A stretch of 64,000 nt of DNA from a bacterium. Lineage in GTDB: Bacteria; Patescibacteriota; CPR2; UBA1875; JAJYID01. The notes under the pieces were generated by a model. It was not told where the DNA came from, did not search any database, and saw only the letters and a list, made by a program, of their open reading frames with translations. The position numbers and the translations under genes were made by a program. Within the stretch, counting starts at the first letter, position 1. Every line of letters starts with the position of its first letter. The stretch is from the NCBI GenBank assembly GCA_021787535.1, contig JAJYLR010000001.1:83648-147647 (forward strand). The letters are read 5' to 3'. Shown in pieces: positions 20,657 through 37,848 of this stretch.

Positions 20657-20703
20657 TATCATTCCGAGCGACTTCGCGGTAGCGACGAGCCGAGGAATCC
20701 CTT
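20657..20703. repeat. Palindromic element, type C (GTCATTCCGAGCG...CGAGGAATCCC), intergenic copy
   Basis: tcattccgagcgacttcgcggtagcgacgagccgaggaatccc. The same element occurs inverted at 37801-37848 and as variants inside uvrD and acs. Confidence 0.8.
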
Positions 20704-20735
20704 TTCAATAATGTAATTTAAAATATGATTTATAT

Positions 20736-20763
20736 AGATTCCCGCCTGCGCGGGAATGACAAA
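20736..20763. repeat. Palindromic element, type B (GATTCCCGCCTGCGCGGGAATGAC), intergenic copy
   Basis: Identical or near-identical copies at 38295-38320 (in ppsA) and 54436-54463 (in uvrD). Confidence 0.85.
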
Positions 20764-20797
20764 TAAGAGAAACAGGAATGACAAGTAAAGGAGCATT

Positions 20798-21586
20798 ATG
20801 GCTAAAAGAAAAAAGATTGTAATTGCAAACTGGAAAATGAATCTGACTGTTCCGGAAAGTACAGTATTAATTGAAAAACTCAAAAAAGAAATTTCGGGAA
20901 ATCTTCAACTGGAAGTAGCGGTGTGTCCCAGTTTTGTTGATATTTATTCAGCTTCAGCAGAATTAAAGAATTCCAAGATTAGCATTGGCGCACAAAACGT
21001 AGCTGAAGAGGAAAAAGGTTCTTATACCGGCGAAGTATCAGTACTGGCCCTTAAAGGTTTTGTGAAATATATCTTGGTGGGGCATTCGGAGAGAAGAAAT
21101 ATTTTCGGAGAAAACGATAAAGTGGTTGCGGGTAAAGCTGAAACAGTGGTGCGCCATGATATGACGCCGGTAATTTGTGTAGGCGAAACTTTACATGAAA
21201 GAGAAGATAAACTTTCTAAGATAGTAGTACTGTCTCAGCTCGAAGCATCATGCAAACAGTTGACGGCTGAAGAGATTTCCGAAAGTATCATCGCATATGA
21301 ACCAGTCTGGGCGATCGGTACCGGTCACGTTTGCTTACCAGAAGAAGCTGAAAAAATAGCAGCAGATATTCGAGGTCTTATTAAGTCTCTTTATGGCGAG
21401 AAAGCTGCCAGATTAGTGCATATTCTCTATGGCGGCAGCGTGACGGCAAAAACGGCGAAGGATTTTAGATATGCCAAAAATATCGATGGACTGCTCGTTG
21501 GCGGTGCCAGCCTGGATCATCATGAGTTTGCGGCAATAGTTAAAAATTTTTCATCAGAGAAGAAACCAAAAAAGGGTAGGAAATGA
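20798..21586 (+). CDS. tpiA: Triosephosphate isomerase
   Basis: The IANWKMN N-terminus, the GHSERR catalytic region and AYEPVWAIGTG. Confidence 0.9.
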   Translation: MAKRKKIVIANWKMNLTVPESTVLIEKLKKEISGNLQLEVAVCPSFVDIYSASAELKNSKISIGAQNVAEEEKGSYTGEVSVLALKGFVKYILVGHSERRNIFGENDKVVAGKAETVVRHDMTPVICVGETLHEREDKLSKIVVLSQLEASCKQLTAEEISESIIAYEPVWAIGTGHVCLPEEAEKIAADIRGLIKSLYGEKAARLVHILYGGSVTAKTAKDFRYAKNIDGLLVGGASLDHHEFAAIVKNFSSEKKPKKGRK

Positions 21587-22425
21587 TCGTTACTGCTAAA
21601 GATCTCTTAATTAAAGCAAGAGCAGGCAGGTACGCGATAGGAGCATTTAATACCTCAGATCTCGAAATAACCAAGGGAATTTTAGAGGCAGCTTTGGAGT
21701 TAAAATCGCCGGTTATTATTGAAACGTCTGAGGGTGAGGCACATTTTGAGGGATATCGAGTTTTCGTTGACAGCGTTCGTGATATGGCAGAAGACTTAAG
21801 CGTTGATGTTGCTATCAATCTGGATCACGGCAAGAGCTTTGAAAGTGTGAAGTATGCCATTGAGTCCGGTTACTCATCTGTACACATTGATTGTTCACTT
21901 CTGTCTAAAGCGGAAAACATTGCAGTGACAAAAAAAGTGGTTGAGTTTGCTCACTCGCGGGGCGTTTCGGTTGAGGGAGAATTCGGCCATGTCGGCGGAA
22001 GCAGCGAGATTCACGAAGGTGAACAGCCCCAAGATGGTACATTAACTGATCCTCAGGAAGCAGCCGATTACATTAAACAAACAGGGGTTGATATCTTCGC
22101 CGGTTCATATGGAAATATTCATGGTGTTTACAAAAATCCGCCGCATCTTGATATAGAAAGAATCAAGAAAATTGCAGAGGAATCCGGATTGCCGCTTTCC
22201 CTTCACGGGGGTTCAGGTATCCCGGACGACCAAATTAAAGCGGCAATTCAAGCCGGGATTTGCAAAATCAATGTCAATACTGAGATTAGAAAAGCTTACA
22301 GAGAAGCACTTGATAAAGCATTAAGGAACAAAGTTGCGGAAATAGTACCGTACAAATATATGCCGGAAGCCATTAACGCAGTCAAAGAAGTTGTAAGGCA
22401 GAAAATTTCATTATTTCATGCCTAG
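21583..22425 (+). CDS. fba: Class II fructose-bisphosphate aldolase
   Basis: YAIGAFN, LDHG and HGGSG class II FBA signatures. Its start overlaps the tpiA stop. Confidence 0.85.
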   Translation: MIVTAKDLLIKARAGRYAIGAFNTSDLEITKGILEAALELKSPVIIETSEGEAHFEGYRVFVDSVRDMAEDLSVDVAINLDHGKSFESVKYAIESGYSSVHIDCSLLSKAENIAVTKKVVEFAHSRGVSVEGEFGHVGGSSEIHEGEQPQDGTLTDPQEAADYIKQTGVDIFAGSYGNIHGVYKNPPHLDIERIKKIAEESGLPLSLHGGSGIPDDQIKAAIQAGICKINVNTEIRKAYREALDKALRNKVAEIVPYKYMPEAINAVKEVVRQKISLFHA

Positions 22426-22483
22426 TTTCGGGCTTGCAGTTTAAGCAATGTTCTGATAACATAAACTATATAAAAAAGGAGAT

Positions 22484-22945
22484 GTGATGAAGAAAAATAA
22501 TTTAACGTCCAAAAATGTTCTGATAGCAGTTTTAATCCTCGCGCTTTTGGCAGCGGGAGGATATGCTCTTTCACATAAAATTGAAGAACATTTTAACAAA
22601 GAGAGAACGGCAAGTGTTACACAACAAATCGATAGCAGTAAATATCAGGCAGTATTTTTAACAAACGGGCAGGTTTACTTCGGCAAACTTCAGGATAATG
22701 GCGGCGATTATGTAAAACTCACCGATATTTACTATCTTCAGAACCAAGATCAGAATAAGGTCCAGCCAAAAGATCAAAACTCTAATAATCAATCAAATCT
22801 AACCTTAATAAAGCTTGGCAAAGAGCTGCATGCTCCTGAGGATATGATGGAAATCTCACGACAACAGGTTCTTTTCTGGGAAAATATTCAAGATAACGGT
22901 AAGGTAGCTCAAGCTATCAAACAGTATAAAACGAATAATAAATAA
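22484..22945 (+). CDS. Membrane-anchored hypothetical protein (153 aa)
   Basis: N-terminal TM helix VLIAVLILALLAAGGYAL and an aaggag RBS. Confidence 0.4.
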   Translation: MMKKNNLTSKNVLIAVLILALLAAGGYALSHKIEEHFNKERTASVTQQIDSSKYQAVFLTNGQVYFGKLQDNGGDYVKLTDIYYLQNQDQNKVQPKDQNSNNQSNLTLIKLGKELHAPEDMMEISRQQVLFWENIQDNGKVAQAIKQYKTNNK

Positions 22946-22956
22946 TACATCCTGTC

Positions 22957-23035
22957 ATCCTTGGGCTTGACCCGAGGATCTAGATTCCCGCCGGAGTTTA
23001 TGCTGAGCTAGATTCAGTGCGGAAATGACAAGGGA
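22957..23035. repeat. Composite palindromic element cluster (type C-like plus type B-like variants) in the intergenic DNA after 22484-22945
   Basis: ctgtcatccttgggcttgacccgaggatc followed by gattcccgccgg...cggaaatgacaag. Confidence 0.6.
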
Positions 23036-23110
23036 ATAACAGCATAAAAAAATTGCTCACTCTCAAAACGGGCAATTTTTTATTGGCGGACGAAGTTTTT
23101 GAAAAAAATC

Positions 23111-23139
23111 TTGTGATGATGATTATGATTATCTATAAT
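23111..23139 (+). promoter_or_regulatory. Sigma70-like promoter (TTGTGA-17-TATAAT) for the first giant surface-protein gene
   Basis: ttgtga at 23111-23116, a 17-nt spacer, tataat at 23134-23139, then the ATG at 23163. Confidence 0.5.
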
Positions 23140-23162
23140 TTATTCATAACCGGAACAAGTTT

Positions 23163-26100
23163 ATGTACAGTGTGACTAAGGTATCAATTATCAAGCTTTT
23201 TATAGCAGCAGCTATCCTGATTATTGCGGGTTATCTTGCTGTTTATGAACTTACTCTCCACCAGGTGTATCAAAAATACAAAGCACAGCAAACTTCAGGC
23301 GGAAACATTCCTGTTTCAAATACTGACCTCTCCAAAGATTACGTTTCTCTAAAGGGCGGCAACCCTCAAGCCGGCGCTATCAATGTTAGCGGTGATATTG
23401 CCGGCAATGATGTCCAGGGGCAAACCATTACCTCAACCGTTCAGAATGGAACATCTCCGCTTAATGTCACTTCATCAACCTTAGTTAACAACCTTAATGC
23501 TGACATGGTGGACGGCAAGCACGCAGATGAATTAACCAAAACAACCGTAAACAATATTACAAACACTACAACAGGTGAATCTATCCAGCCGGGAACAACA
23601 GGCCAATACTACCGCGGCGATAAATCCTGGCAGACCTTAAATTCTTCTGCTGTCGGTCTTGGAAATGTCGAGAATACAGCTCTTTCGACATGGACGGGAT
23701 CAAACCAAGTTGCCATTTTAGGAACCGTCACTTCCGGAACCTGGAACGCTGGTGCAATCAACGCGGCCGGTTCTATTACCGGTACAGCTCTCCAAGGCAC
23801 ATCTCTAAACCTTGGCTCTGGCACTATTATCGCAGGAACTATCAATGGCGCAACTATCTCGGGAGGCACATTATCCGGCGGCAATATTTCAGGCGGAACA
23901 GTGCAGGGCGGAACTCTTTCTTCAACTGCCGTCAATGGCGTAACTACAGCAAATATCTTAATCAACACCGGCTCATACTCTGACCCGTCATGGCTACAAG
24001 GTCTTGCCGGTTCAAAGATTACCGGAGATATATCAGGAAATGCCAGTGGCCTTACCGGCACACCAAATATCACCGTCGGTACCATTAGCTCCGGAAATAT
24101 TACATCTTCAGGGACGCTTAGTATTACAGGAACAGGGAATTCATCGGTAGCTGGGAATTTAGGTGTTAACAGTTTACTTACGCCGGAAAGTCTTGGGCCT
24201 GAGCTCGATCCAAACCCTACGCTTGATAACAATTGTAACGGCTGGACAATAGGAGGCCCGGATTGGGTATGCCACGGCAACTATTACTCGCATGATTCTT
24301 ACGGAACCAGCTATACTTATTTAACTAATGGGATACCATCTGTAATCGGACAAGTCTATAAGCTGACTTTCACGGTATCCGGCTACTCTGCGGGAAGCTT
24401 CGATTTCTATGTTGCGGGAGATAGAACGCCTACCATAACAGCAAATGGCACTTATACTTTTTATCTTAAAGCGCGCTATGCCAATGATTGGTTCTTTCCA
24501 GAACAAACTGCGAACTCTCTTTTTGCATTAGATAACATCTACCTCGAGGCGCAAAACGCGCTACCCGTATATTCAACAATAACTGCCGGCGATGTAGTAA
24601 CAAGAGGCGGATCAAAAACTGATGTTAGGGCATTTGGCGCAAAATGCGACGGCGTGACGGATGATTCAGCTGCAATTCAAGCAGCTGAAGATAGTCTGCC
24701 TTATAACGGCGGTACGTTATTCTTTCCGGCGGGTACCTGTATTGGTCATTTCACGGTCAAATCCAATGTCCACATCATGGGCAGCGGCATTGAAGCTACT
24801 GTTTTAAAATTGCCCAATGGTGCCAATACTGACGTGATTAATACGCAAGATTTTAATAACCTAACGGGTACTGATAGTCAAAGAGGTGCCTTAAGGGTGA
24901 CTCTTGAAAATATAACTTTAGATGGCAACAAAGGTAACAATTCCAGCGGATATTGTCTCAAAAAGTACGGTGCTCAATGGAATATCCATGATACTGTTTT
25001 CAGAAACGGCGCAAGCGGAGGTATGTATGCAGAATGGGGAACTTATCTGGGCATACCTTATGGCGCTGACTCTATGGAGGATAAATGGAGTAATATCTGG
25101 GTTCATGATAACAATGGCGCTTACGCTATTTGGATGAAAGGACCCCATGATAGCGTAATGACAAACTCGCTAATATATGCAAATGCCGGCAGCGGAATTT
25201 TTATAGATCATTCAGGGAGTACGTTTAATGGCGGGGGATTAACTATCAATGATACGCATATTTGGGGCAACTCCACCACTGGTTATGGCATTCTCTCAGA
25301 TACGGCGCTTCGAATGAACGGAGATATCGTTGAAGGAGAAAGCGGCAGCGGCGGTGTAGGGATTAGGATGTACCAAAATTACGATACAGGTGTCCTTACT
25401 GCTACCAATCTCGAGATTTTTGGCAACGAAACTGGCATATTACTCGATGCAAATACCCAGAGAAACAATATTTCTGGTGTCTATGTGCATGAAAATACAA
25501 ATGGCATTAAGGTTTTAAGCAATGAAAATAACATAACCGGAGCTTTAATTACCTGGCAAACTTCAGGTACGGGCTTAATTATGGGTGACGGAACTCATGT
25601 TGTTTCCAATAACAATATTGAAGGAAAGTTTTATAATAATGCAACCAGCATTAATTGGGGCAATCCTTCAAACACTAACGATTCTATTGATGCTTTGATA
25701 TCGACATCAGGCGGACAAACTGCTCTTTCGGGTAGCCCCTCAAGCACTAACAAGTTAAATATCTTGTCAGCAGGTTCTGGCGCCAATACTTCACTTACCA
25801 ATATTGCCGGTCAATTATCCATTGAGTCCGCCCAAACCTCTGGCAATCTCACCACGATCGCAGCACCCTCTGCCGTAACTGCAACGGGTGACATTGTAGG
25901 CCAGAGAATTGATCTCCGAAGTAACTACACGATTTCTAATCATCAGGTAACAGGATCATGGCTATCTATGCCGAATGTGACAAACTCCAGTGCAACCAGT
26001 GCGTGGTACAATGCATACTATGTTGATGGCGGTTCACTGCAAAATGCCGGTATAGGCAATGATTATTGGACGGGTTTTGGTTACCAAGAACCCAACATTA

Positions 26101-28784
26101 CAACCACATCATCGGGTTCAATAACATCAGTCGGCATAGAACTTTATAAACCGAGCACGATCAGCGGAGCCAATGCTCATAACTATAGTATTATAGTTGA
26201 TCCCGGCGCGGGCAATGTCGGCATCGGTACCACAGCGCCAGCTAGTCTTTTAACTGTAAATGCTCCGGTGACGACTGATAGTTCCACGGTAACTGCCATG
26301 ATTACCTCGGCTAATGCCGCCAACAAAGGGCTGGTAGTCCAAGGTTATACTTCTCAAACAGCTGATTTAATCCAGGCACAGAGTTCGCTTGGAGCGGTGC
26401 TTTTTAGTGTTGATAATTCAGGCAACATTACAACTAGCGGTAATACCGCCAAAACAATCGCAGAGGCGCGCAATACTTCAAATGCTGCGGGAAACAATCT
26501 GACGGTGCAGAGCGGCGGGGCATACGCTGGCGGTACCGATCTAAATGGCGGAAACCTGATAGCTGCCTCGGGTATTTCCACGGGACTCGGGTCGTCTAAC
26601 ATCTATCTTCAGACAGCTTCGGGTACAGGGTCTATTTCGAGCGTTAATGCAACTCCGACGACAAGCGGCAGCGGCTATAGTTTGAATGATATTTTGACTA
26701 TTTCGGAAGGTTCCGGGGGACAGGTTAAAGTTACAGGCGTCAGCAGCGGCCAGGTTACTGCTGTGACTTTGTATGCCGCTGGCATTGGCTATACAACAGG
26801 GACAGGCAAGGTGACTACCGGAGGTACGGGGACGGGTTGTTCGATTAATATTACAGGTGTGTCGAGCGGGACAACCGATCAAACGCCGAGCACAAAGATG
26901 ACCATTCTAGGAAACGGGAATGTCGGCATAGGCACCACGGCTCCCGGTGCCAAACTGACAATCCAGGGGAATGCTGTCAACAACGGCGCTGCTCCAATTA
27001 TGGAAATTCAAGACAGCACCGGAGCCGAACTCTTCAGAATTAATGCAAATGTAGTAGACAACCTCTTCATCGGCAACTCAGCTGGTAATGCCATTCAGAC
27101 GCCGGGTGTTTCCACTCAAGGGCTCTATGATACATTTATCGGCACTTATTCCGGTATGCATAATACCACAGGACACTACAACACCTTTATCGGTAACAGA
27201 TCGGGATCGGAGGATACAACCGGCGATCACAACACCGCGATCGGGATGCAAAGCGGGTACAATATTACCACCGGACAATATAATACTTATCTAGGAATAA
27301 CTGCCGGTCAGGATGGGACGACTGCCAATCACAATGTTGCTATAGGCGACTATGCGGGTATAGGCAATGTCAACGGCGATAAAAATATCTTTGTCGGTAG
27401 TTACTCTGGCTACAACCGGCTGATGGGTATCGGGGAGATATTACAAGGTTACAATGCCGGCAGTTCCGGCAAGTCCGGCGGGTACAACATTAGTCTAGGA
27501 GTAAACTCTCTGTATAATGATTATGATGGTATCGGCAATGTTTCCTTAGGCACTTATTCGCTGTTTAGCAATAAATCCTCGACAGATAAGTCGATTACGG
27601 GCTTTGCCAACTATTCAGGCAGTGAAAAGGTCACTACCTTAAACCCTCATGGGCTGGCAGTCGGCGACTCTGTATATATTACCTTTAACTCAATGGCATC
27701 AACTGAACTGACGCATAGTGCGCTCTATACGGTACAAAGTGTGATAGATGCCAATGACTTTACTATTGCCAGAACATACGACTCTGCCAATGACCTGAAG
27801 GGCTACTGGGAAAGAGGTGCCACACTTTCAGATAACGGCAGCGGCAAGGTGAGAGTAACTTCAAACAACCATGGCGTGCCAAACGGAGGCCTTGTTATCC
27901 TTGGAGGAACGGGAGCAAATTCATCTTATGATGGTATGCATACAGCTACGCTTATAGATGCAAACCATTTCGATCTGACGGATTTAACTTATTCATCCAG
28001 CTATACAACGGGCTGGTTTGAATACGAGCCGCAATCAGGGAATAACACCGCTGTCGGAAGCTATGCCGGCTATGCCAATACAACCGGCTATAATAATACT
28101 TTTCTTGGCTACAATGCCGGCAATGCCGGCACGACAGGCACGCTGCAGAATGCTGCGGCTATCGGATATAACGCCCAAGTTACGGAAAGCAATGCTATAG
28201 TCTTGGGCGGTACGGGCTCAAGTGCGGTCAATGTTGGCATTGGCACAACTGCCCCGGGTGCTAACCTGGAGATTGATAGCAATGCTGCAGGTACTATCGT
28301 TCAGATCATTAAGGCGTATTCCGGTCAGACCGCAGATCTTTTGGAGATCCAGGGCTCTGATACCAGCGTTTTAGCGAAGATTGATGCATCCGGCAACCTG
28401 ACGGCAAAGGCCGCATCATTTACCGGAACACTCACCGTGACAGGTCACTTTAAATCAACCCAAACAACAGCTCCGACGATAGGTACGCCGACAAGCTGCG
28501 GTACGACACCGACTGCTGCAGTGACTGCCGGTTCAACCGACTCAGCTGGATCATTAACCATCACTGCCGGTACTGGTGCTCCTGGTAACTGCGCTGCTCA
28601 AATAACCTTTAATACTGCCTATGGCGCTGCCCCTAAGTCAATTATTCTGACGCCAAGTACTGCAACCGGTCCGGCTAAACAAGCATATATTTCTGCTAGT
28701 TCTGCTACCACATTCACAGTTACATTTGGAACGGCTCCGACTGCTTCTGAAGCTAATACTTTCTACTACTGGGTTGTAGAATGA
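23163..28784 (+). CDS. Giant surface protein (1873 aa) with an N-terminal signal-anchor, a pectate-lyase-superfamily right-handed beta-helix (tailspike/depolymerase-like) and tail-fibre-like NTxxG repeats
   Basis: VRAFGAKCDGVTDDSAAIQAAEDSLPYNGGTLFFPAGTC is the hallmark N-terminus of the pectate-lyase-3 beta-helix family. Repeated xNTxxGxxAG units lie between aa ~1300 and 1480. The N-terminus is hydrophobic: IIKLFIAAAILIIAGYLAVY. Confidence 0.8.
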   Translation: MYSVTKVSIIKLFIAAAILIIAGYLAVYELTLHQVYQKYKAQQTSGGNIPVSNTDLSKDYVSLKGGNPQAGAINVSGDIAGNDVQGQTITSTVQNGTSPLNVTSSTLVNNLNADMVDGKHADELTKTTVNNITNTTTGESIQPGTTGQYYRGDKSWQTLNSSAVGLGNVENTALSTWTGSNQVAILGTVTSGTWNAGAINAAGSITGTALQGTSLNLGSGTIIAGTINGATISGGTLSGGNISGGTVQGGTLSSTAVNGVTTANILINTGSYSDPSWLQGLAGSKITGDISGNASGLTGTPNITVGTISSGNITSSGTLSITGTGNSSVAGNLGVNSLLTPESLGPELDPNPTLDNNCNGWTIGGPDWVCHGNYYSHDSYGTSYTYLTNGIPSVIGQVYKLTFTVSGYSAGSFDFYVAGDRTPTITANGTYTFYLKARYANDWFFPEQTANSLFALDNIYLEAQNALPVYSTITAGDVVTRGGSKTDVRAFGAKCDGVTDDSAAIQAAEDSLPYNGGTLFFPAGTCIGHFTVKSNVHIMGSGIEATVLKLPNGANTDVINTQDFNNLTGTDSQRGALRVTLENITLDGNKGNNSSGYCLKKYGAQWNIHDTVFRNGASGGMYAEWGTYLGIPYGADSMEDKWSNIWVHDNNGAYAIWMKGPHDSVMTNSLIYANAGSGIFIDHSGSTFNGGGLTINDTHIWGNSTTGYGILSDTALRMNGDIVEGESGSGGVGIRMYQNYDTGVLTATNLEIFGNETGILLDANTQRNNISGVYVHENTNGIKVLSNENNITGALITWQTSGTGLIMGDGTHVVSNNNIEGKFYNNATSINWGNPSNTNDSIDALISTSGGQTALSGSPSSTNKLNILSAGSGANTSLTNIAGQLSIESAQTSGNLTTIAAPSAVTATGDIVGQRIDLRSNYTISNHQVTGSWLSMPNVTNSSATSAWYNAYYVDGGSLQNAGIGNDYWTGFGYQEPNITTTSSGSITSVGIELYKPSTISGANAHNYSIIVDPGAGNVGIGTTAPASLLTVNAPVTTDSSTVTAMITSANAANKGLVVQGYTSQTADLIQAQSSLGAVLFSVDNSGNITTSGNTAKTIAEARNTSNAAGNNLTVQSGGAYAGGTDLNGGNLIAASGISTGLGSSNIYLQTASGTGSISSVNATPTTSGSGYSLNDILTISEGSGGQVKVTGVSSGQVTAVTLYAAGIGYTTGTGKVTTGGTGTGCSINITGVSSGTTDQTPSTKMTILGNGNVGIGTTAPGAKLTIQGNAVNNGAAPIMEIQDSTGAELFRINANVVDNLFIGNSAGNAIQTPGVSTQGLYDTFIGTYSGMHNTTGHYNTFIGNRSGSEDTTGDHNTAIGMQSGYNITTGQYNTYLGITAGQDGTTANHNVAIGDYAGIGNVNGDKNIFVGSYSGYNRLMGIGEILQGYNAGSSGKSGGYNISLGVNSLYNDYDGIGNVSLGTYSLFSNKSSTDKSITGFANYSGSEKVTTLNPHGLAVGDSVYITFNSMASTELTHSALYTVQSVIDANDFTIARTYDSANDLKGYWERGATLSDNGSGKVRVTSNNHGVPNGGLVILGGTGANSSYDGMHTATLIDANHFDLTDLTYSSSYTTGWFEYEPQSGNNTAVGSYAGYANTTGYNNTFLGYNAGNAGTTGTLQNAAAIGYNAQVTESNAIVLGGTGSSAVNVGIGTTAPGANLEIDSNAAGTIVQIIKAYSGQTADLLEIQGSDTSVLAKIDASGNLTAKAASFTGTLTVTGHFKSTQTTAPTIGTPTSCGTTPTAAVTAGSTDSAGSLTITAGTGAPGNCAAQITFNTAYGAAPKSIILTPSTATGPAKQAYISASSATTFTVTFGTAPTASEANTFYYWVVE
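23403..23800. repeat. 398-bp tract 100% identical to 29102-29499 in the downstream paralog (recent gene conversion or duplication)
   Basis: Base-by-base comparison of the two listings across all lines in this interval. Flanks diverge immediately at 23402/29101 and at 23801/29500. Confidence 0.9.
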
Positions 28785-28861: not shown

Positions 28862-31800
28862 ATGTATAACCCAACCAAGTCAACCTTAATTAAAATCTTC
28901 TCTTTAATATCTATTTTAATTTTATGCGGTTTTTTGCTTGTTTACGAACTGACGATTCATGAAGTTAATCAGAAATACAAAAACCAGCAGTCTTCGCAGG
29001 GCAATATTTCGCTTTCAACTTCCGATCTCTCCAAAGATTACGTATCACTCAAGGGCTCAAATCCTCAGTCCGGCAATATCAACCTTGAGGGCAATATCTC
29101 AGGCAATGATGTCCAGGGGCAAACCATTACCTCAACCGTTCAGAATGGAACATCTCCGCTTAATGTCACTTCATCAACCTTAGTTAACAACCTTAATGCT
29201 GACATGGTGGACGGCAAGCACGCAGATGAATTAACCAAAACAACCGTAAACAATATTACAAACACTACAACAGGTGAATCTATCCAGCCGGGAACAACAG
29301 GCCAATACTACCGCGGCGATAAATCCTGGCAGACCTTAAATTCTTCTGCTGTCGGTCTTGGAAATGTCGAGAATACAGCTCTTTCGACATGGACGGGATC
29401 AAACCAAGTTGCCATTTTAGGAACCGTCACTTCCGGAACCTGGAACGCTGGTGCAATCAACGCGGCCGGTTCTATTACCGGTACAGCTCTCCAAGGCACG
29501 TCCTTAAATCTTGGTTCAGGCGCTATCACATCAGGCGCAATTAACGGCCAAACTATTTCTTCCAGCGCTAACTTTACAGGAACTATTACGGCTGGCGGTA
29601 CCATTAACGGAGCTACAATCTCCGGAGGCACACTTTCCGGCGGAAATGTCTCAGGCGGTACTGTCCAGGGTGGAACGCTTTCGTCAACGGCTGTCAACGG
29701 CGTAACTACGGCAAACATTCTAGTCAACACCGGCTCATATTCTGATCCTTCTTGGCTACAAGGTCTTGCCGGTTCAAAGATTACCGGAGATATTCAAGGA
29801 AATGCTAGCGGGTTAACGGGTTCACCTAATATCACGGTTGGTACGATCACTTCCGGCAACATCACATCATCGGGAACACTGGATATTACAGGAACAGGGG
29901 ATTCAACAGTTGGCGGTAATATTTCAGTGAACCCGGACTTTGGCTCTGAGCTAACGACAAATGGAAACTTTAACGGCAGTGCCAACAACTGGCTGGTTTC
30001 CTGCACCGATTATTCCAGCGGTTCCACTGCCTGTAATACGGCTGATACGCCAAACTCAGTTCCGGCATCCGGTTGGTCTTACGGCTCAAACAGTGTTTCT
30101 CATGCTTCTGGAACAAACAACACTGATGCCTTATATCAGGACATTTCAAATACGGCGGGAGAAACATACGGATCAAATATCATTACAGACAGCAACTTTT
30201 CTCTCAATCCTGCAACTAACGGATGGGATTGGATGGATGCCGGCTGGCATTGGGTAAACAACACCGCTATGACTAATGCCGGAGGAGCGTATTTCGGCGA
30301 TGATCTCGGAACAAGCCTTACAGCCGGACTGTACAAAGTTCAATTCTCAACATCGGGAATGCCTGCTGGCGGGCAACTAAAAGTTGCTTTATCCAGTGGA
30401 GGGATAAGTGAAGATGCAGCAGTCGTATCAGGTAACGGCCAACATACTTTCTATTTCACAGTCGGCACCACTCCTGAGACGGGTGGCTGGCCATATTATC
30501 TATATTTTGATTCGACATCGGTTGGCACCACCATTGATAACGTGTCGGCTCAACTGGTTACCGGCGCTCAGTTCGGAGAATCGCAAACTCAGTCATACAA
30601 AGTTAGTTTCGCTGTCTCGGGCATGACAGCCGGATCGCTCTCCGCCAATCTCGGTGGTGTCGGCGGGTCGCCCATTACGGCCAATGGGACCTATACCCAG
30701 TATTTAATTGGCAAGCCCAACGCTAACATCATTTCATTTGTTCCATCACATGATGCTGTCTTTACTCTTTCAAATATTTCCGTTACTCCGGTTCAGAACG
30801 GCACTATTACTGTTCAGGATATCATTACCAAAGGAGGGCCGAAAGTTGACGTCAGAGCTTATGGCGCAAAAGGAGACGGGAAGACCGACAATACGGCGGC
30901 CATCCAGGCGGCGGAAGACAGTCTCCCTGATCAGGGCGGCACTCTTTATTTCCCATCCGGAACATTTCTCGGCCACGTAACCCTAAAGTCAAATGTCCAT
31001 GTTGAAGGTGCCGGTATCAACGCAACCATACTGAAACTTCCGAACGGCGCAAATACGGATGTGATTGCCTCCAAAGATTTCGCCAGCTTGACCGGCAACA
31101 CAACCAACAGAGATGGTGTTAATAGAGTTACACTCGATGACATAACCATCGACGGAAATGCAGGAAACAATACCGCGGGTTACGGTGTCAGAAAATACGG
31201 AGGCCAATGGAATGTTCATGACGTTGTCATTAAAAACTGCGCTCAGGACGGAGTCTATTCTGAGTGGGGTAGCTATGGGGGCGCTCCTCTTGTGGCTGAT
31301 TCAATGGAAGATCATTGGACTAATATTATGCTTACTGTTAATTCCGGCAGCGGTATGACCTGGAACGGCCCTCATGATAGCGTGCTCGACAACTTTATTG
31401 TAAGTAGCAACAGTGGCAATGGGATCAATTTTGAGAATGCATCCGGGGGGGTTGCCAATGGTACCCAGCTGAAGAATTCCCACATTTGGGGCAATTCATC
31501 AACAGGTTATGGTTTGTGGATTAAAACGAGTATAAATCTTGACAATGATATTGTCGAAGGGGCAACCGGTACTGGCGGAATCGGCATTTATGTGGATTCC
31601 GGCGGAGCCATCTTGGCAAACGGCCTCCAAGTCTATGCTTGTGAAACAGGAGTTTACATAAGCGGAGTGTCGCCGGGCGGAAATAATGAGATTACAGGAA
31701 TTACTTTGTCTACTATTACTAAAGCTAATATTGTCATTTATAGCGCTTGGTCCGTCCGAATAACCGGTGCCACAATTTCGATCTCTTCGAATTCTTCAAG

Positions 31801-32731
31801 TGCAGTGGGTATTGATCTGCAAAGCGGAGGAAATGCCTATATAGATAATGCAGTGATCAGTTTAGGACAGAATTCGCATGGCATTAATGTTGGTAGCTCA
31901 GGGTCGGCGTTTACCGGCAGTATGATTTCTGCCAGGATTGTAGGATATACCGGAAGCAGCCCGACCGGAACCATGATCAATTGGGCTAATGCCGGAGATG
32001 CCAACAACAACTTAACAGCCACAGTTTCGACACATACGGGAGAAACCGCTCTTGCAGGCAGTCCCGCAGCAAGTAATGAAATTAATATTTTATCAACAGG
32101 GACTGGGACAAATGCGAATTACAAAAACTTCTCAAGCGCCAATAACGTTGGGGTTGGGGTAATTAATTCTCAAAACAAGCTTAGCGTTAATGCTCCTGTT
32201 ACGGCTGACACGCTGGCAACCACGATAATTACGCCAACTGTGGCTTCGAACAAAGGTTTAGTAGTGCAAGGTTATACTTCGCAAACTGCTGACTTGATCC
32301 AGGCGCAAAGTTCACTAGGAGCCGTGTTATTTAAGATTGACAACTCGGGTAACTTGGCGGCTAAAAGCGCAACCTTCACCGGCACATTGACTATGAACGG
32401 TCATATTATTACCGGAAACTCAATCGGTTCGACGACGATTGCCGCCGGAGCTAATGCAGGAACGGGAGCCACGGCAACAATCAGTGGAAACGACACTTCG
32501 GGGACTATCACAGTGACGACTGGAACCGGCCCGGCTGCGGGAACTTTGGCAACTATTACATTTGCCGGTACCTATGGCTCGGCACCAAGAGTGGTTTTGA
32601 CACCAACCGGCGCAAATGGCGCAACTCTGCAATATTATGTCGGATCCACAACCACAACATTTACCTTATCTAGCGGTACGGCACCGACGGCTTCAACCGC
32701 CTACACCTACAATTATCAGGTAATGCAGTAG
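28862..32731 (+). CDS. Giant surface protein paralog (1289 aa) with the same N-terminal anchor, a shared conserved ~300-aa N-domain, a pectate-lyase-type beta-helix and a shared C-terminal domain
   Basis: VRAYGAKGDGKTDNTAAIQAAEDSLPDQGGTLYFPSGTF. The N- and C-terminal regions align with the upstream gene. The genes are in tandem with a 77-bp spacer. Confidence 0.8.
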   Translation: MYNPTKSTLIKIFSLISILILCGFLLVYELTIHEVNQKYKNQQSSQGNISLSTSDLSKDYVSLKGSNPQSGNINLEGNISGNDVQGQTITSTVQNGTSPLNVTSSTLVNNLNADMVDGKHADELTKTTVNNITNTTTGESIQPGTTGQYYRGDKSWQTLNSSAVGLGNVENTALSTWTGSNQVAILGTVTSGTWNAGAINAAGSITGTALQGTSLNLGSGAITSGAINGQTISSSANFTGTITAGGTINGATISGGTLSGGNVSGGTVQGGTLSSTAVNGVTTANILVNTGSYSDPSWLQGLAGSKITGDIQGNASGLTGSPNITVGTITSGNITSSGTLDITGTGDSTVGGNISVNPDFGSELTTNGNFNGSANNWLVSCTDYSSGSTACNTADTPNSVPASGWSYGSNSVSHASGTNNTDALYQDISNTAGETYGSNIITDSNFSLNPATNGWDWMDAGWHWVNNTAMTNAGGAYFGDDLGTSLTAGLYKVQFSTSGMPAGGQLKVALSSGGISEDAAVVSGNGQHTFYFTVGTTPETGGWPYYLYFDSTSVGTTIDNVSAQLVTGAQFGESQTQSYKVSFAVSGMTAGSLSANLGGVGGSPITANGTYTQYLIGKPNANIISFVPSHDAVFTLSNISVTPVQNGTITVQDIITKGGPKVDVRAYGAKGDGKTDNTAAIQAAEDSLPDQGGTLYFPSGTFLGHVTLKSNVHVEGAGINATILKLPNGANTDVIASKDFASLTGNTTNRDGVNRVTLDDITIDGNAGNNTAGYGVRKYGGQWNVHDVVIKNCAQDGVYSEWGSYGGAPLVADSMEDHWTNIMLTVNSGSGMTWNGPHDSVLDNFIVSSNSGNGINFENASGGVANGTQLKNSHIWGNSSTGYGLWIKTSINLDNDIVEGATGTGGIGIYVDSGGAILANGLQVYACETGVYISGVSPGGNNEITGITLSTITKANIVIYSAWSVRITGATISISSNSSSAVGIDLQSGGNAYIDNAVISLGQNSHGINVGSSGSAFTGSMISARIVGYTGSSPTGTMINWANAGDANNNLTATVSTHTGETALAGSPAASNEINILSTGTGTNANYKNFSSANNVGVGVINSQNKLSVNAPVTADTLATTIITPTVASNKGLVVQGYTSQTADLIQAQSSLGAVLFKIDNSGNLAAKSATFTGTLTMNGHIITGNSIGSTTIAAGANAGTGATATISGNDTSGTITVTTGTGPAAGTLATITFAGTYGSAPRVVLTPTGANGATLQYYVGSTTTTFTLSSGTAPTASTAYTYNYQVMQ

Positions 32732-33574: not shown

Positions 33575-33576
33575 CG

Positions 33577-33840: not shown

Positions 33841-33874
33841 ATATTGTCTCATTTTAAACATCGTGGTTGCTTTT

Positions 33875-33891
33875 ACAAGGACTGTCCTTGT
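33875..33891 (+). terminator. Gene-end palindrome acaaggactgtccttgt (family member, opposite central base)
   Basis: A perfect 17-nt palindrome 35 nt after the STAS stop. Confidence 0.45.
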
Positions 33892-33947
33892 TGAAATTGT
33901 ACACATTGTTTTTGAGGCTTTGTTGTGTTTTGGTATTTTTAGATTCT

Positions 33948-34037
33948 CTTTCTTTGTCATCCCGAGTGGAGCGATAGCGTAATCAAGGGATCTTTTTCCG
34001 AGGATTAAGGGATTCCTCCGCTTTGGTCGGAATGACA
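33948..34037. repeat. Composite palindromic element (type C variants) in the intergenic DNA upstream of the phosphoribosyltransferase gene
   Basis: tttgtcatcccgagtggagcgatagcgtaatcaagggatc ... gggattcctccgctttggtcggaatgacag. Confidence 0.65.
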
Positions 34038-34048
34038 GAGGAGATAAT

Positions 34049-34705
34049 ATGGCAGATGTTTATTTTAAAGATCGAGAAGATGCCGGGCGGAGGTTGACTG
34101 AGAAGTTAATTCAATACAAGGGTCAAAATCCGGTTGTTTTGGCTTTGCCGAGGGGTGGAGTTGTTCTTGGTGCAGAAGTTGCCGGGGTATTAAACTGCCC
34201 GTTAGACCTCGTAATTCCCAGAAAAATCGGCCATCCGATAAATCCGGAGTATGCTATCGCCGCTGTGACCGAAGGCGGGGCGCTTGTGGCAAATGAGAGC
34301 GAAGTTGCCACGGTTGATCCGGAATGGTTTGAACGAGAAAAAGCGGTCCAGATTGCCGAAGCCAAAAGGCGGCGGAGGGTTTACTTGAAAGACAGAAAGG
34401 CAGTAGATTTAACCGGTAAAACAGCTATTATCATCGATGACGGTATTGCCACGGGCCTGACTATGATGGCTGCAATTTCCGAGGTTAAGGCGAAAAATCC
34501 TGTCAAAATCATCATTGCCGTACCGGTAGCGCCGGCTGATATTTACCACAGAATTAGCCAAGAAGTTGACGATTTTGTTGCCATTGACGCGCCGGAGTAT
34601 TACCTGGGTTCGGTGGGCGCTTATTATCAGAAATTCCCGCAGGTGAGCGATGAGGAAGTGGTCGGGATTTTGTACCAAAATCTCAGGAAAACAAATAACA
34701 ATTAA
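34049..34705 (+). CDS. Phosphoribosyltransferase (type I PRTase fold)
   Basis: The PRPP-binding motif TAIIIDDGIATGLTMMAAI. The size is 218 aa. Confidence 0.7.
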   Translation: MADVYFKDREDAGRRLTEKLIQYKGQNPVVLALPRGGVVLGAEVAGVLNCPLDLVIPRKIGHPINPEYAIAAVTEGGALVANESEVATVDPEWFEREKAVQIAEAKRRRRVYLKDRKAVDLTGKTAIIIDDGIATGLTMMAAISEVKAKNPVKIIIAVPVAPADIYHRISQEVDDFVAIDAPEYYLGSVGAYYQKFPQVSDEEVVGILYQNLRKTNNN

Positions 34706-34782
34706 CAAATAACAAGGGACTGCTAATTTAGGACATAGTTGTTAATTGTTTACTGTTAATTGTTTACTGTTATAATAAGCTT

Positions 34783-35160
34783 ATGCAATATATCAGTTTT
34801 GTACCAGCACTTTTAATCTGGTGGTATGGGAGGGGACTGACTGATCTCTTTTCCTTTCTTTTAGCTTTGCTTGACTATATTCAAAATTTATTTTCTGTCA
34901 CAGCACTCTTAAAAACGCTTTTTTCGCCTTGGAAAAAAATGGTTGGTGAAAGAGGCCGGGGGATTGACGGTTTAAAAATATGGCTTCTTGATAACCTTGT
35001 TTCCCGAGGAGTCGGCTTCGTTGTCCGGGTACTGATGATTTTTGTCTTTCTGATAGCTTTTCTGGCCTTCCTTATCTTTTCAGTGATAGCAATTATATTT
35101 TGGCTTTTTATGCCTGGGATTGTAGCAGCTTCTTTTATTTACATCTTTATAGGGAAATAA
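34783..35160 (+). CDS. Small polytopic membrane protein (125 aa)
   Basis: Three hydrophobic segments. Its stop abuts the start of the Clp ATPase gene. Confidence 0.4.
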   Translation: MQYISFVPALLIWWYGRGLTDLFSFLLALLDYIQNLFSVTALLKTLFSPWKKMVGERGRGIDGLKIWLLDNLVSRGVGFVVRVLMIFVFLIAFLAFLIFSVIAIIFWLFMPGIVAASFIYIFIGK

Positions 35161-35161
35161 C

Positions 35162-37678
35162 ATGGTGAATCCGGAACAAATAGATTTTTCTAAAAATACG
35201 CGGCTTACGCTTATTGCGAACTTAAATGCGACCTTTAACCGAGAGCAGATAGTCAAGATATTAGGCGCTATCAGTGTTCTGGGCGGATTATCTTTTGCGA
35301 TTCTTTTGGCGGCTTACTTTACCGGGCTTTCCAGTCCCTTCTTCATTTTTGCCAGAATGTTTCTTTTTTTGGGGCTGATGGCTTTTGTCTTTTTGGTTTT
35401 CATTAAAAAATTTTTTCGCCAGACAGAAGATGCTATTCAAATAGGCGAAAATGCGTCCTCGTACCAAGTCTTTAAAATAGTGGATCTTGAAACTGTTAGA
35501 ATCCTATCCGGCATTGACTTTAATAAGCCGGATCTAACTGCTTTATACGAAAAAATACTTGCGTCCCGGAGAGTCCAGTTCATTGCCGGCGAGATGGGGA
35601 TGACAGTGGAATTTAACCGCAAACTTTTTTCAGGAATCATCAAAGGACAGAATCTGTTTCCTCAAATTTTTGCTTTGGCTATCGATAACGCCGTGAGCGA
35701 AAAATCTAACTTTGTTACAACAGCGGATATTTTTTACGGCTTTTTGAAAATTAGCACTGCGCTCGATGCCTCGCTTATGGCTATCGAAATCAACGAAGAT
35801 GACCTTCAAAATATTGTTTTCTGGGCTAATAACTTTTTTATGAAGGTTATGTATCCCAAAACCTTGATCCAAAAGATGCATTCTAAACAGGAGGGATTAG
35901 CTGAAAGCTGGGCTTCCGGTTACACGATATTTTTAGACAGATTTTCGCGCGATATTTCTAGTCCTGCGTATTTTGGCGCCTTTTCGACGGAGGGCAGAGA
36001 GAAAGTTCTTGCCGAGATGGAAAATGTTTTATCTAAAGAATCAAGACACAACTGTATCTTGACGGGCGAACCGGGAACCGGCAAAACCTCCGTTGTTTAC
36101 GGGCTGGCTGAAAAAATTTACTGGGGTGAAACTTTGCCTGCGCTATCGCACAAAAGAGTTGTATCGCTTGACACGGCTGCTCTTCTTTCCGGTGTTTCTT
36201 CGCCGGCTGAGGCAGATGAAAGGTTGCTCGGAGTTTTAAACGAAGCGGCTCGGGCAGGAAATGTTATCCTTTTTATCGACGACATTCATACGCTTTTTGC
36301 CGGATCGGGAGGCAAGGTCGGGACGATTGATGCTTCTGAAGTAATAGCTCCTTACCTTGCCGGCAGCAATCTAAGGATCGTCGGAGTGACAACTACCCAT
36401 AACTATCAGACTTACATTGCACCCAGGGGCAACATTGCCGGCAGTATGGAAAAAATTGAGGTTGAACCAGCGGATTTGAACCAGACAATCCGAATTCTTG
36501 AAGACCTTTCGCTTTATTTTTCTGCTAAATATCATCTGAGTATCAGTTATAACGTGCTTAAGGAAGTTTATCGGCTTGCCGAGAGATTTGTGAGTGAGAA
36601 AGGATTTCCGGCCAAAGCGGTGGATATGCTGGAAAATGTTTGTACGGCCGCCAAGAACAAAGGGGAAAAATCGCTCGACCGCCATATCACCGATATGCTG
36701 GCTGAAAACACCTTAAATGTGCCAATCCAGGAGGCAGAGGGATCTGAGAAGGAGACCTTATTAAATCTAGAAAGCAAACTGCACTCAAGAGTCATCGGAC
36801 AGGATGAAGCGGTAAGGGCTGTCACTCAGGCCCTTCAGCGCGCCAGAACGCAAGTGGCGGATACAAAAAGACCGATCGGAACATTTCTCTTTCTGGGCCC
36901 GACAGGGGTTGGTAAAACGGAGCTTTCTAAAGCGCTTGCTTGGGCATACTTTGGCAGCGAGGAAAATATGGTCCGGATGGATATGAACGAATTTCAGGAC
37001 GCCTCATCTGTCGATCGTTTCATCGGGCGCCAGATCCCCGGCAGTGAAGATCTAGAGGGCGGTGATTTTGTAAAGAAAGTACGAGAGCATCCGTTCTCTG
37101 TTGTTCTTTTGGACGAACTTGAAAAAGCGCATCCGGACATTCTAAATCTTTTCCTGCAAATTTTAGACGAGGGCTACTTTACAGATGCCCTTGGCAGTAA
37201 GATATCATTTCAAAACACCATTATCATTGCTACATCAAACGCTGGGGCGAATTTAATTCGGGAAGGCATTGTCTCCGGTCAAGACTCAAACAGTTTAAAA
37301 ACAGAACTGTTGGCATTTTTACAGAAAGAAGGCATTTACAAGCCGGAGTTTTTAAATAGATTTGACGGAACTATTATCTTTAAGCCATTAACAAAGGATG
37401 AACTCTTGAAAATTGCCCGGCTAATCTTCCAAAACTCTTGTACATCCTTGAAAGAAAAAGGTTATATTATTCAAATAGAGCCGCTAGCGCTTGAGAAGCT
37501 TGTTGAGTGGGGTTATCAGCCGGAGTTTGGCGCGCGTCCGATGAGACGGGTATTTCAAGATAAGTTAGAGAGCATGCTAGCCAGGAAAATCTTGGAGGGT
37601 ATAGTTCAAAAAGGCCAGCCGTTTACGGTCAAACTAGCTGATTTGGAAGGTGCCGACCAAGCGGTTGGAAATGCTTAA
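35162..37678 (+). CDS. Clp-family two-NBD AAA+ chaperone (ClpB/ClpC-like) with an N-terminal membrane anchor
   Basis: NBD1 Walker A LTGEPGTGKTSVVYGLAEKI and NBD2 LFLGPTGVGKTELSKALA. Clp-N-like repeats are present. Two TM helices at aa 30-80 are unusual for Clp ATPases. Confidence 0.8.
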   Translation: MVNPEQIDFSKNTRLTLIANLNATFNREQIVKILGAISVLGGLSFAILLAAYFTGLSSPFFIFARMFLFLGLMAFVFLVFIKKFFRQTEDAIQIGENASSYQVFKIVDLETVRILSGIDFNKPDLTALYEKILASRRVQFIAGEMGMTVEFNRKLFSGIIKGQNLFPQIFALAIDNAVSEKSNFVTTADIFYGFLKISTALDASLMAIEINEDDLQNIVFWANNFFMKVMYPKTLIQKMHSKQEGLAESWASGYTIFLDRFSRDISSPAYFGAFSTEGREKVLAEMENVLSKESRHNCILTGEPGTGKTSVVYGLAEKIYWGETLPALSHKRVVSLDTAALLSGVSSPAEADERLLGVLNEAARAGNVILFIDDIHTLFAGSGGKVGTIDASEVIAPYLAGSNLRIVGVTTTHNYQTYIAPRGNIAGSMEKIEVEPADLNQTIRILEDLSLYFSAKYHLSISYNVLKEVYRLAERFVSEKGFPAKAVDMLENVCTAAKNKGEKSLDRHITDMLAENTLNVPIQEAEGSEKETLLNLESKLHSRVIGQDEAVRAVTQALQRARTQVADTKRPIGTFLFLGPTGVGKTELSKALAWAYFGSEENMVRMDMNEFQDASSVDRFIGRQIPGSEDLEGGDFVKKVREHPFSVVLLDELEKAHPDILNLFLQILDEGYFTDALGSKISFQNTIIIATSNAGANLIREGIVSGQDSNSLKTELLAFLQKEGIYKPEFLNRFDGTIIFKPLTKDELLKIARLIFQNSCTSLKEKGYIIQIEPLALEKLVEWGYQPEFGARPMRRVFQDKLESMLARKILEGIVQKGQPFTVKLADLEGADQAVGNA

Positions 37679-37800
37679 AGAAAAGAGTAAAATAAGAATG
37701 ACTAATTACCAATATCTAATAACCAATCAATTCTAAAATTTAAAAATTAATTAATTGAAAATTGACTGGAAATTGGGACTTGAAAATTAGAAATTAAGGT

Positions 37801-37848
37801 TAAGGGATTCCTCGGCTTGTCGCTACCGCGAAGTCGCTCGGAATGACA
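37801..37848. repeat. Palindromic element type C, inverted copy of 20657-20703, upstream of ppsA
   Basis: gggattcctcggcttgtcgctaccgcgaagtcgctcggaatgacaaa is the reverse complement of the 20.66-kb copy, with 1-2 differences. Confidence 0.8.

Follow-up and report, generated by a model that had tools for sequence, protein, structure and literature searches.

Palindromic repeats, very probably of the CGTC type, lie in frame within housekeeping genes of a Patescibacteriota genome

We analyzed a 64-kb stretch of DNA (hereafter the window; assembly GCA_021787535.1, contig JAJYLR010000001.1, positions 83,648 to 147,647) from a bacterium of the Patescibacteriota, or candidate phyla radiation (CPR), in which short hairpin-forming palindromes recur within and between genes. 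Genes were assigned by Pfam annotation of about 50 open reading frames (ORFs). The region encodes functions of glycolysis and central metabolism (gap, pgk, tpiA, fba, ppsA, eno, iPGM, pfkB, an ADP-forming acyl-CoA synthetase and the pyruvate:ferredoxin oxidoreductase PFOR), along with pcrA/uvrD, ksgA, rsmI and metG, and the closest named homologs belong to candidate division WS5, "Patescibacteria group" and Howlettbacteria. Counting both scan matches and imperfect copies seen by eye, we found 25 hairpin elements spanning 14.4-62.8 kb (48 kb). They are of three types, A, B and C, with a separate hairpin, A', forming the 5' arm of some type A copies. Sixteen of the 25 are fully intragenic, two overlap ORF 3' ends (those of PFOR-beta and of the methionyl-tRNA synthetase MetRS) and seven are intergenic (upstream of tpiA, of a phosphoribosyltransferase (PRTase) gene and of ppsA, plus one after ORF 22484-22945). 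The initial annotation of this DNA had put its emphasis on intergenic copies; four of those that it cited (38295, 48661, 54436 and 54470) are contained entirely within ORFs, and two others (51863 and 62755) overlap an ORF 3' end. The main feature here is the in-frame colonization of housekeeping genes.

The 16 intragenic copies are distributed over seven genes (nine with the overlaps at ORF ends), with Pfam domains intact on both sides and in frame. Three type A copies and one type B are found in ppsA, and the ADP-forming acyl-CoA synthetase gene contains C, A' and A. The PcrA/UvrD gene harbors B and a long C at one site and A' and A at another, rsmI contains A' and A, and an RNase H gene contains one type A variant. 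Enolase, PFOR-alpha, PFOR-beta and MetRS all end in or at an element. Each type is read in one fixed frame: type A encodes (D/N)SGQ... in 9/9 cases, type B encodes DSRLRGND in both of its intragenic copies (2/2) and A' encodes xHxGDxRTPES in 3/3. By comparison, among type A copies from metagenomes with at least 500 nt of flanking sequence, 14/90 lay in a long ORF or at its end, versus 6/6 in the window.

These inserts occupy protein positions that are tolerant of insertion, namely interdomain linkers or termini. Relative to PcrA (1pjr), the PcrA/UvrD protein of the window presents 94 residues in place of 7 and 54 in place of 12, and both inserts fall at gaps of the alignment. The synthetase presents 67 residues in place of 12 relative to ADP-forming CoA ligases, exactly where its alpha and beta modules meet; in 4xyl these modules are separate subunits. 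About 22 extra residues form a loop insertion in RsmI when compared to the RsmI of E. coli. The three insert sites of ppsA are all interdomain, and in the AlphaFold model of this protein the inserts correspond to the three longest low-confidence coils (115-153, 367-392 and 508-525), with a predicted local distance difference test score (pLDDT) of about 27.

The elements are more numerous in the window than in shuffled sequences. Motif searches returned 3-7 matches per motif against 0-0.3 in shuffled sequences, and a structure scan (GTCAT head followed by a perfect stem of ≥6 bp) identified 19 hairpins against 3.1 ± 1.9 in shuffles. Type B (GGATTCCCGCCTGCGCGGGAATGAC) is present with 0-1 mismatch at 20736, 38295 and 54436, with matches in 0/100 shuffles, and a loop variant is found at 62755. 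Allowing ≤3 mismatches, type A was found seven times (38224, 39004, 39403, 48819, 51109, 55793 and 59466), all on the + strand and with no match in shuffles; one additional variant lies at 14479. The copies at 39403 and 51109, located in different genes, are identical. A' was found at 48775, 55749 and 59434. The type C head motif yielded 4 matches versus 0.32 expected; the type C copy at 20657-20703 is 91% complementary to the inverted copy at 37801-37848 over 54 nt, and variants were found at 22953, 33955, 48660, 51862 and 54469-54536. All the elements cited in the initial annotation were recovered where it had placed them or a few bases away. Its type C copies are real, but the head at 20657 is TATC rather than GTC, one base off the consensus that it quoted, and the variants that it positioned at 33948 and 22957 lie at 33955 and 22953.

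The unit is a hairpin with an unpaired C/TGTC head, a stem beginning with AT (AT-TC), a loop or interior and a CCA-like tail. The head is CGTC in 7 of the 25 elements, TGTC in 15, GGTC in 2 and TATC in 1 (CGTC/TGTC, 22/25). All stems begin with AT; they measure 8 bp in type B, 9 bp in the variant at 42478 and 7 bp in type A, and are imperfect in type C. Loops are 4 nt long in type B, 5 nt in type A and 13 nt in A', whereas those of type C exceed 25 nt and are structured. The tail is CCA at 38294, 39002, 42478 and 54435, CCT at 39401, 48817, 51107 and 55791, and CTA, CTT or CCC elsewhere. Types A, B and C share their termini, as the initial annotation had noted, and are subfamilies of one family.

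It had also described copies in both orientations. Both do occur, but their distribution is not random: the head lies on the downstream side of the + strand in 13/14 short A/B hairpins. A' and most type C copies are oriented opposite to A/B and thereby form heads-outward pairs (20657/20735, 33955/33999, 48774/48817, 55748/55791 and 59433/59464). The two members of a doublet are separated by 0-10 nt for A'/A and by 31 nt for the C/B pair, and this inverted geometry is that of REPINs, the doublets formed by repetitive extragenic palindromic (REP) sequences. The GC skew of the window tracks gene orientation and, for this reason, the orientation of the hairpins relative to replication is not decidable from skew. 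The positions of all elements and associated segments are given in Table 1.

Table 1. Hairpin elements and associated segments along the window. L244 and L246 are sister genomes. RS-like is a label for AT-rich segments, which may or may not be related to the RS elements of Neisseria.
Element	Position	Strand	Context and remarks
Type A variant	14477..14502	-	In RNase H gene; 7-bp stem, 6-nt loop, head GGTC; read NSGQGQND
Type C	20657..20703	+	Intergenic, pgk/tpiA; head TATC; heads-outward pair with type B 20735
Type B	20735..20761	-	CGTC-1/dRS3-like, TGTC-ATTCCCGC-GCAG-GCGGGAAT-CTA; 37 nt upstream of tpiA
Remnant, head only, TGTCATTCC	20770..20783	-	15 nt upstream of tpiA
GTCATCC variant	22953..22983	+	9-bp stem; intergenic, 8 nt past ORF 22484-22945; followed by degenerate GATTCCCGCC partner
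GTCATCC type C variant	33955..33992	+	Intergenic, upstream of PRTase gene
Type C, short, degenerate	33999..34037	-	12 nt upstream of PRTase gene; heads-outward with 33955
AT-rich RS-like segment	37697..37795	.	CCAATnn / TTGGAAA heptamer-like repeats, adjoins type C; within 180-nt block 100% identical to L244
Type C	37801..37848	-	16 nt upstream of ppsA; same-sample short-read contigs break here
Type A	38222..38247	-	ppsA insert site 1, aa 120-128, DSGQAGMT
CCAATAC heptamer run	38252..38287	.	ppsA, between types A and B; read PNTQYPIPNT
Type B	38294..38320	-	ppsA, DSRLRGND; contains ATTCCCGCGCAGGCGGGAATC; absent from L244
Type A	39002..39027	-	ppsA site 2, linker before mobile His domain, DSGQAGMT; absent from L244
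Type A	39401..39426	-	ppsA site 3, linker after mobile domain, DSGQARMT; absent from L244 and L246; partial duplication just upstream
Type B-like	42478..42528	+	9-bp outer stem, long structured loop; enolase C-terminal tail VIPAPDRVEGKASAGI; absent from L244 and L246
Type C	48660..48704	+	Alpha/beta linker of ADP-forming acyl-CoA synthetase; left end of 183-nt mosaic
RS-like AT-rich segment	48705..48773	.	Synthetase mosaic; read NSQFPITNDQSSSNNQMSNKG
A' hairpin	48774..48806	+	Synthetase, GHSGDGRTPES; left half of heads-outward doublet
Type A	48817..48842	-	Synthetase, DSGQVRMT; right half of doublet, right end of mosaic
Type A	51107..51132	-	C-terminal 12 aa of PFOR-alpha; ~36-nt clean insertion vs L246
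PFOR-alpha tail junction peptide			Predicted, ...LEDSGQARMTQS
GTCATCC type C variant	51862..51925	+	Overlaps PFOR-beta 3' end
RS-like AT-rich segment	54357..54430	.	Start of PcrA/UvrD insert 1
Type B	54435..54461	-	PcrA/UvrD insert 1, DSRLRGND
Type C, long variant	54469..54536	-	PcrA/UvrD insert 1, which runs on to about 54640
RS-like AT-rich segment	55668..55747	.	Start of PcrA/UvrD insert 2; 77% identical to synthetase mosaic over 136 nt
A' hairpin	55748..55780	+	PcrA/UvrD insert 2, RHFGDDRTPES
Type A	55791..55816	-	PcrA/UvrD insert 2, DSGQARMT; partner of A' 55748
A' hairpin	59433..59465	+	rsmI, CHSGDGRTPES
Type A	59464..59489	-	rsmI, DSGQARMT; directly abuts A' hairpin
Type B loop variant	62753..62780	-	Overlaps metG stop codon

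The same insertion sites are occupied differently among relatives. In an alignment of 21 PpsA proteins (homologs of 67-89% identity), the three sites were filled, empty or differently filled, and the same pattern was observed at the nucleotide level. Site 1 is empty in all but three of the 21 sequences; the 89% identical homolog P0002 presents type A and the heptamer run at this site without type B. Site 2 contains lineage-specific REP-encoded peptides (DSGQAG, DSRLRGND, DSGRAGMT and VILATEGSPES), and of these 21 proteins, only that of the window and P0004 have an insert at site 3. Both PcrA/UvrD sites are empty in four relatives (79-84% identity), and three others present different mosaics at the same two sites. 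Nucleotide comparison further showed that the sister genome L244 (GCA_021796415.1; L245 is an independent re-assembly that agrees with it) lacks three of the ppsA copies, type B at 38295 and type A at 39004 and 39403. The tails of enolase and PFOR-alpha are absent from sister genomes. The PFOR-alpha tail, absent from L246, is a clean insertion of ~36 nt in the window that keeps the ATGA stop/start overlap. With sister genomes at 75-82% nucleotide identity, the exact insertion junction was readable for this tail only, and comparison to L246 revealed no direct repeat flanking it. Judging from these alignments, the pattern among relatives is the one expected from repeated gain and loss filtered by selection.

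Several homologs of the same two proteins also contain domains of another kind: PF14890, PF14528 and PF01079 were found among ppsA homologs P0072, P0106 and P0110 and among PcrA/UvrD homologs P0130, P0132, P0147, P0165 and P0240. We take these Pfam entries to be intein/Hint families; if so, selfish inserts of more than one kind would be found in ppsA and PcrA/UvrD across the clade.

The hairpins are often joined to a family of AT-rich segments of ~70 nt made of CCAATnn-like heptamers, with seven copies in the window, and together they form mosaics of 140-280 nt. Two blocks composed of an AT-rich segment, A' and A, one in the synthetase gene (48707-48842) and one in PcrA/UvrD (55681-55816), share 77% identity over 136 nt, and blocks of this kind, ~140 nt long, have thus been copied as units. 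The first PcrA/UvrD insert is a mosaic of ~280 nt that comprises an AT-rich segment, B, long C, another hairpin and CAATACA heptamers. The AT-rich family is also found outside genes, adjoining type C upstream of ppsA. Two AT-rich palindromes of ~130 nt (19298-19424 and 51934-52063), 84-86% alike and with heptamer-like repeats (AAGTAAC.../...GTTATTT), are located between genes, in gap/pgk and PFOR-beta/PFOR-gamma; they make up a repeat family of their own, with a relation to the AT-rich segments that partner the hairpins. The synthetase gene contains, in addition, a perfect 14-bp inverted repeat at 47403-47456 (TTCCGCACATATTT...AAATATGTGCGGAA) within its N-terminal CoA-binding domain. It is in frame, has no CGTC head and is absent from L246 and from solved homologs.

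The structure and sequence of these elements indicate that they are very probably CGTC-type REPs. Di Nocera, De Gregorio and Rocco (2013, BMC Genomics 14:522; PMC3733652) described CGTC-tagged REPs as hairpins with a CGTC head (variants TGTC and CCTC), a stem of 8-9 bp that opens with an A-T and a T-A pair, a loop of 4-5 nt with exceptional loops in some species, and a short unpaired tail that is mostly CCA, and divided them into the families CGTC-1 to CGTC-4. Types A, B and C are subfamilies of this one known superfamily. The window shares with it the CGTC/TGTC head, the A-T/T-A first pairs, the 4-5 nt loops (types A and B) and the CCA-like 3-nt tail, as well as the predominance of inverted dimers, the presence of several subfamilies in one genome and the lack of a flanking transposase. 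Intragenic copies are also common to both, including in genes for a UvrD-type helicase and a tRNA synthetase. The superfamily was reported from five phyla that do not include the Patescibacteria, and its copies are mostly intergenic, with Rickettsia as the extreme case for CGTC repeats (PMC3733652), whereas 18/25 copies of the window are in ORFs or overlap them. Our literature search returned no relevant report of REPs or REPINs in Patescibacteria, and a full-text search for REP-encoded peptides (RLRGND, IPAFAGMT, SFPRKRES and others) found none.

At the sequence level, type B resembles repeats of Neisseria, in which CGTC-1 corresponds to the dRS3 element (PMC3733652). dRS3 is a 20-bp sequence, ATTCCC-N8-GGGAAT, which together with RS elements of 50-150 bp forms intergenic arrays known as neisserial intergenic mosaic elements (NIMEs; Parkhill et al. 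2000; Bentley et al. 2007, PMC1797815). Type B fits the dRS3 pattern exactly at 20738, 38297 and 54438; type A (ATTCYGG-N5-CCRGAAT) does not. In addition, the reverse complement of 38295-38319 contains, at 21/21 bases, the master 21-mer of the Neisseria REPINs (ATTCCCGCGCAGGCGGGAATC), the commonest 21-mer of these elements, which is tied to a Group 2 REP-associated tyrosine transposase (RAYT; Bertels and Rainey, bioRxiv 10.1101/2021.07.10.451892). As in NIMEs, GC-rich hairpins alternate with AT-richer segments and the content of the arrays differs between related genomes. NIMEs are, however, intergenic and said to be absent outside Neisseria, whereas the largest arrays of the window are in ORFs and in frame. 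Unlike for Neisseria REPINs, we found no Group 2 RAYT in the DNA that was searched here.

In their placement, the elements resemble the palindromic elements of Rickettsia (RPEs; Ogata et al. 2000, recounted in PMC10969869 and PMC3733652). According to these accounts, RPEs are palindromes found, in frame, across unrelated housekeeping genes of a host-dependent bacterium with a small genome, with a fixed frame per family and at positions compatible with protein folding, as is the case here. Units similar to RPE-1 are described there as ~150 bp long, whereas the unit of the window is a hairpin of 23-47 nt and its blocks of ~150 nt are mosaics; the host also belongs to another phylum. Their link to CGTC repeats is taken from the statement that RPE-6 is CGTC-1 and RPE-4 is CGTC-4 (PMC3733652). 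The CPR genome studied here appears to provide a second case, resembling Rickettsia, of intragenic CGTC repeats.

This hairpin family is neither local nor new. We scanned one genome per species (596 Gb) for the type B pattern GATTCCCGC-N3-CGCGGGAATGAC, a 24-mer with 21 fixed bases for which ~0.3 chance matches are expected, and found it in at least 120 genome stretches. These belong to Proteobacteria, Bacteroidota, Chloroflexota, Planctomycetota, Nitrospirota, Verrucomicrobiota, Desulfobacterota, Patescibacteria and others; Neisseria lactamica is among the matches listed, many of which are heads-outward pairs. Type A was found in at least 120 metagenome stretches, and the 13-nt start of type C (head and first stem bases) at six unrelated loci. 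Further copies are located in neighboring DNA of the same sample (L001) and in the sister genomes. The initial annotation had reasoned that copies restricted to the window would point to local duplication, and this spread is the opposite of such a restriction. In other phyla (e.g., L011, L013, L035, L037, L041 and L044), CGTC-1 hairpins are often flanked by short tandem repeats, which echo the heptamer runs of the window: 7-8-mers such as CACAGAGG are placed symmetrically on both sides of the hairpin in L037, and L035 presents tandem copies of partial heads. Among the metagenome stretches (L124-L243), many type A matches lie a few dozen bases from a contig end (e.g., 12-34, 37-59, or 4788-4810 of 4831), which is consistent with repeats fragmenting metagenome assemblies generally.

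Overall, the elements are probably best explained as non-autonomous, CGTC-tagged palindromic REPs that are mobilized in trans and survive where genes tolerate them, and it is likely that they are, or recently were, mobile. We infer mobilization in trans on single-stranded DNA by analogy with REPs of the GTAG type and from the association of REPINs with RAYTs in Neisseria. The GTAG REP/REPIN-RAYT systems of E. coli and Pseudomonas likewise consist of short hairpins, tagged by 4 unpaired nt, that occur in inverted doublets and at high copy number, and they supply the model of single-strand cleavage by a Y1 HUH transposase. They differ by their tag (GTAG rather than CGTC) and by the REP-flanked RAYT gene (REPtron), which was not found here. 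To our knowledge, biochemical cleavage has been shown for GTAG REPs only. Under this model, the hairpins would form on single-stranded DNA, where a RAYT-type HUH tyrosine transposase, encoded as a single copy at another place in the genome, would cut and re-join them in trans; DNA between two hairpins would travel along. Selection would then purge the insertions that break genes. The survivors would be those located between genes, at gene ends, or in flexible linkers where they are read in a stop-free hydrophilic frame, and the copies in linkers would be translated as a disordered loop. By the same analogy, a RAYT is a candidate for the mobilizing enzyme, at somewhat less than even odds.

Several observations weigh against this interpretation. 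No transposase of any kind was detected by Pfam among the about 50 ORFs of the 64-kb window. A tblastn search with the RayT of E. coli yielded no match in the window, in 917 kb of genome loci with type B or in 652 kb of metagenome loci with type A (best E = 0.25), although a single query is a weak detector of divergent RAYTs and the 1.57 Mb of loci come from other organisms, this genome being covered by 64 kb plus about 10 kb. No gene family recurs beside the hairpins (3,556 ORFs from 120 listed genome loci; the top clusters were found at 8 and 7 loci). This is in line with the 2013 survey, which identified no dedicated transposase for CGTC REPs and no RAYT flanked by CGTC repeats in any species (Di Nocera et al., PMC3733652). 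The "REP/RAYT-like" guess of the initial annotation was right about the class, since the elements fit the CGTC-tagged REP superfamily (PMC3733652), but the RAYT, IS200-like or other transposase that it suggested searching for was not found in the window, and the RayT query had no match in the 1.57 Mb of REP-bearing loci of other organisms. Type A stems of 7 bp are shorter than the 8-9 bp of the superfamily, and the interiors of C and A' far exceed loops of 4-5 nt. Finally, the available relatives are too diverged for a target-site signature to be readable.

A different process may have shaped the arrays around ppsA. The ppsA region of the window is about 79% identical to L244 (blastn), yet 37658-37837 (180 nt), which runs from the end of a clpB-like gene through the AT-rich segment to include most of type C, is 100% identical between the two, and so are 38176-38209 and 38224-38287 (34 and 64 nt) in the first ppsA insert. 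Two short-read contigs from the same sample (L002, k141_720160; L001, ENA k141_813560) break inside or adjoining this type C copy, at 37799-37819; one of them ends at 37798. L001 matches the window only from 37819 on, a position inside type C; its upstream part consists of mraZ/mraW/ftsW-side DNA and not of the clpB-like gene, whereas L244 supports the clpB-ppsA gene order of the window. The break at 37819 reflects either a rearrangement or a misassembly at the repeat, and the identical arrays reflect either exchange between lineages, as proposed for NIMEs, or assembly mixing co-occurring relatives at repeats. Such observations are compatible with hairpins acting mainly as recombination or target sites, with a site-specific recombinase (IS110/Piv-type or phage-borne) or homologous recombination swapping array segments within genomes as well as between them, and thereby building and spreading the mosaics. 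The different mosaics at the same two PcrA/UvrD sites and in the same ppsA linkers across lineages would fit this scenario, as would the recombination hypothesis formulated for NIMEs and the integration of phage into dRS3 (PMC1797815). However, no recombinase gene is present in the window, the clean single hairpins of 23-26 nt at new sites (e.g., the PFOR-alpha tail) would be left unexplained, and both the identical patches and the contig break could stem from metagenome assembly of co-occurring relatives. We therefore consider recombination possible but the less likely account, noting that it is compatible with transposition. It is less likely still, but conceivable, that CGTC hairpins and their AT-rich partners are NIME-like cassettes still being exchanged or homogenized between genomes of this lineage without a RAYT. 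If true, such an exchange would imply an undescribed mobilization or gene-conversion mechanism for CGTC REPs and a turnover of protein linker segments that crosses lineages. The array identity between diverged sisters, if real, would offer a handle on what moves CGTC-type REPs.

We regard two further explanations as improbable, one of them strongly so. The initial annotation had suggested that intergenic copies act as transcription attenuators or mRNA-stability hairpins; more broadly, they could be functional RNA hairpins (attenuators, terminators or mRNA stabilizers) kept to regulate glycolytic or other highly expressed genes. Copies are indeed found between co-directional genes, 12-37 nt upstream of the starts of tpiA, the PRTase gene and ppsA, with stable predicted stems (-9 to -14 kcal/mol), and many REPs have been argued to be transcribed and perhaps to tune the expression of flanking genes (Di Nocera et al., PMC3733652). 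Nevertheless, a T-run follows none of the hairpins, and a promoter and terminator scan of the window showed neither enrichment (19 terminator-like sites versus 17.5 ± 3.8 in shuffles) nor overlap with the elements. No Rfam family matched the window at gathering thresholds, and the window also contains no tRNA or tmRNA genes. Moreover, the 18/25 copies in ORFs or overlapping ORF ends, two thirds of all copies being translated within ORFs, the same sequences in unrelated contexts across phyla, and the sister genomes that lack many copies all argue against a regulatory role, and we found no support for the attenuator idea. [quoted passage not shown] The shared inverted termini GTCATTC...GAATGAC and the composite units of 140-190 nt are reminiscent of MITEs, but most units are single hairpins of 23-26 nt, far under MITE size, and the clean PFOR-alpha insertion has no flanking direct repeat. 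The asymmetric head and tail also fit the architecture of REPs and not terminal inverted repeats, and a parent IS was apparent neither in the window nor in the 1.6 Mb of related loci, as judged only by the lack of a recurrent neighboring gene family.

Other classes of repeats were considered and rejected: CRISPR arrays for lack of regular spacing, integron attC sites for their wrong core sites, and inteins or introns because the units are only 23-47 nt long and translated through.

Interpreted as CGTC-tagged REPs, these elements would extend a known family of selfish DNA to the ultra-small Patescibacteria. They would also represent a second independent case, after Rickettsia, of a reduced-genome, host-dependent bacterium that tolerates palindromic repeats in core metabolic and repair genes. 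On a practical level, the repeats break short-read assemblies, with same-sample contigs ending exactly at them, and they add low-complexity stretches (DSGQARMT, DSRLRGND, QFPxxN...) to conserved proteins, which may mislead annotation and alignment.

Two other regions of the window deserve mention. Positions 1-10422 (- strand; 38% GC) encode a DNA methylase (PF01555, 2910-5075), a Replic_Relax protein (6676-7443) and, at 7585-10422, a type IV coupling protein of the TraG/VirD4 kind. This region looks like an integrated conjugative element, and it is free of hairpins, which start at 14.4 kb. Downstream, two adjacent giant ORFs (23163-28784 and 28862-32731) encode proteins of 1873 aa and 1289 aa, of which the second has a pectate-lyase-like domain. 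They share several segments that are 73-80% identical at the DNA level and are probably paralogous surface proteins.

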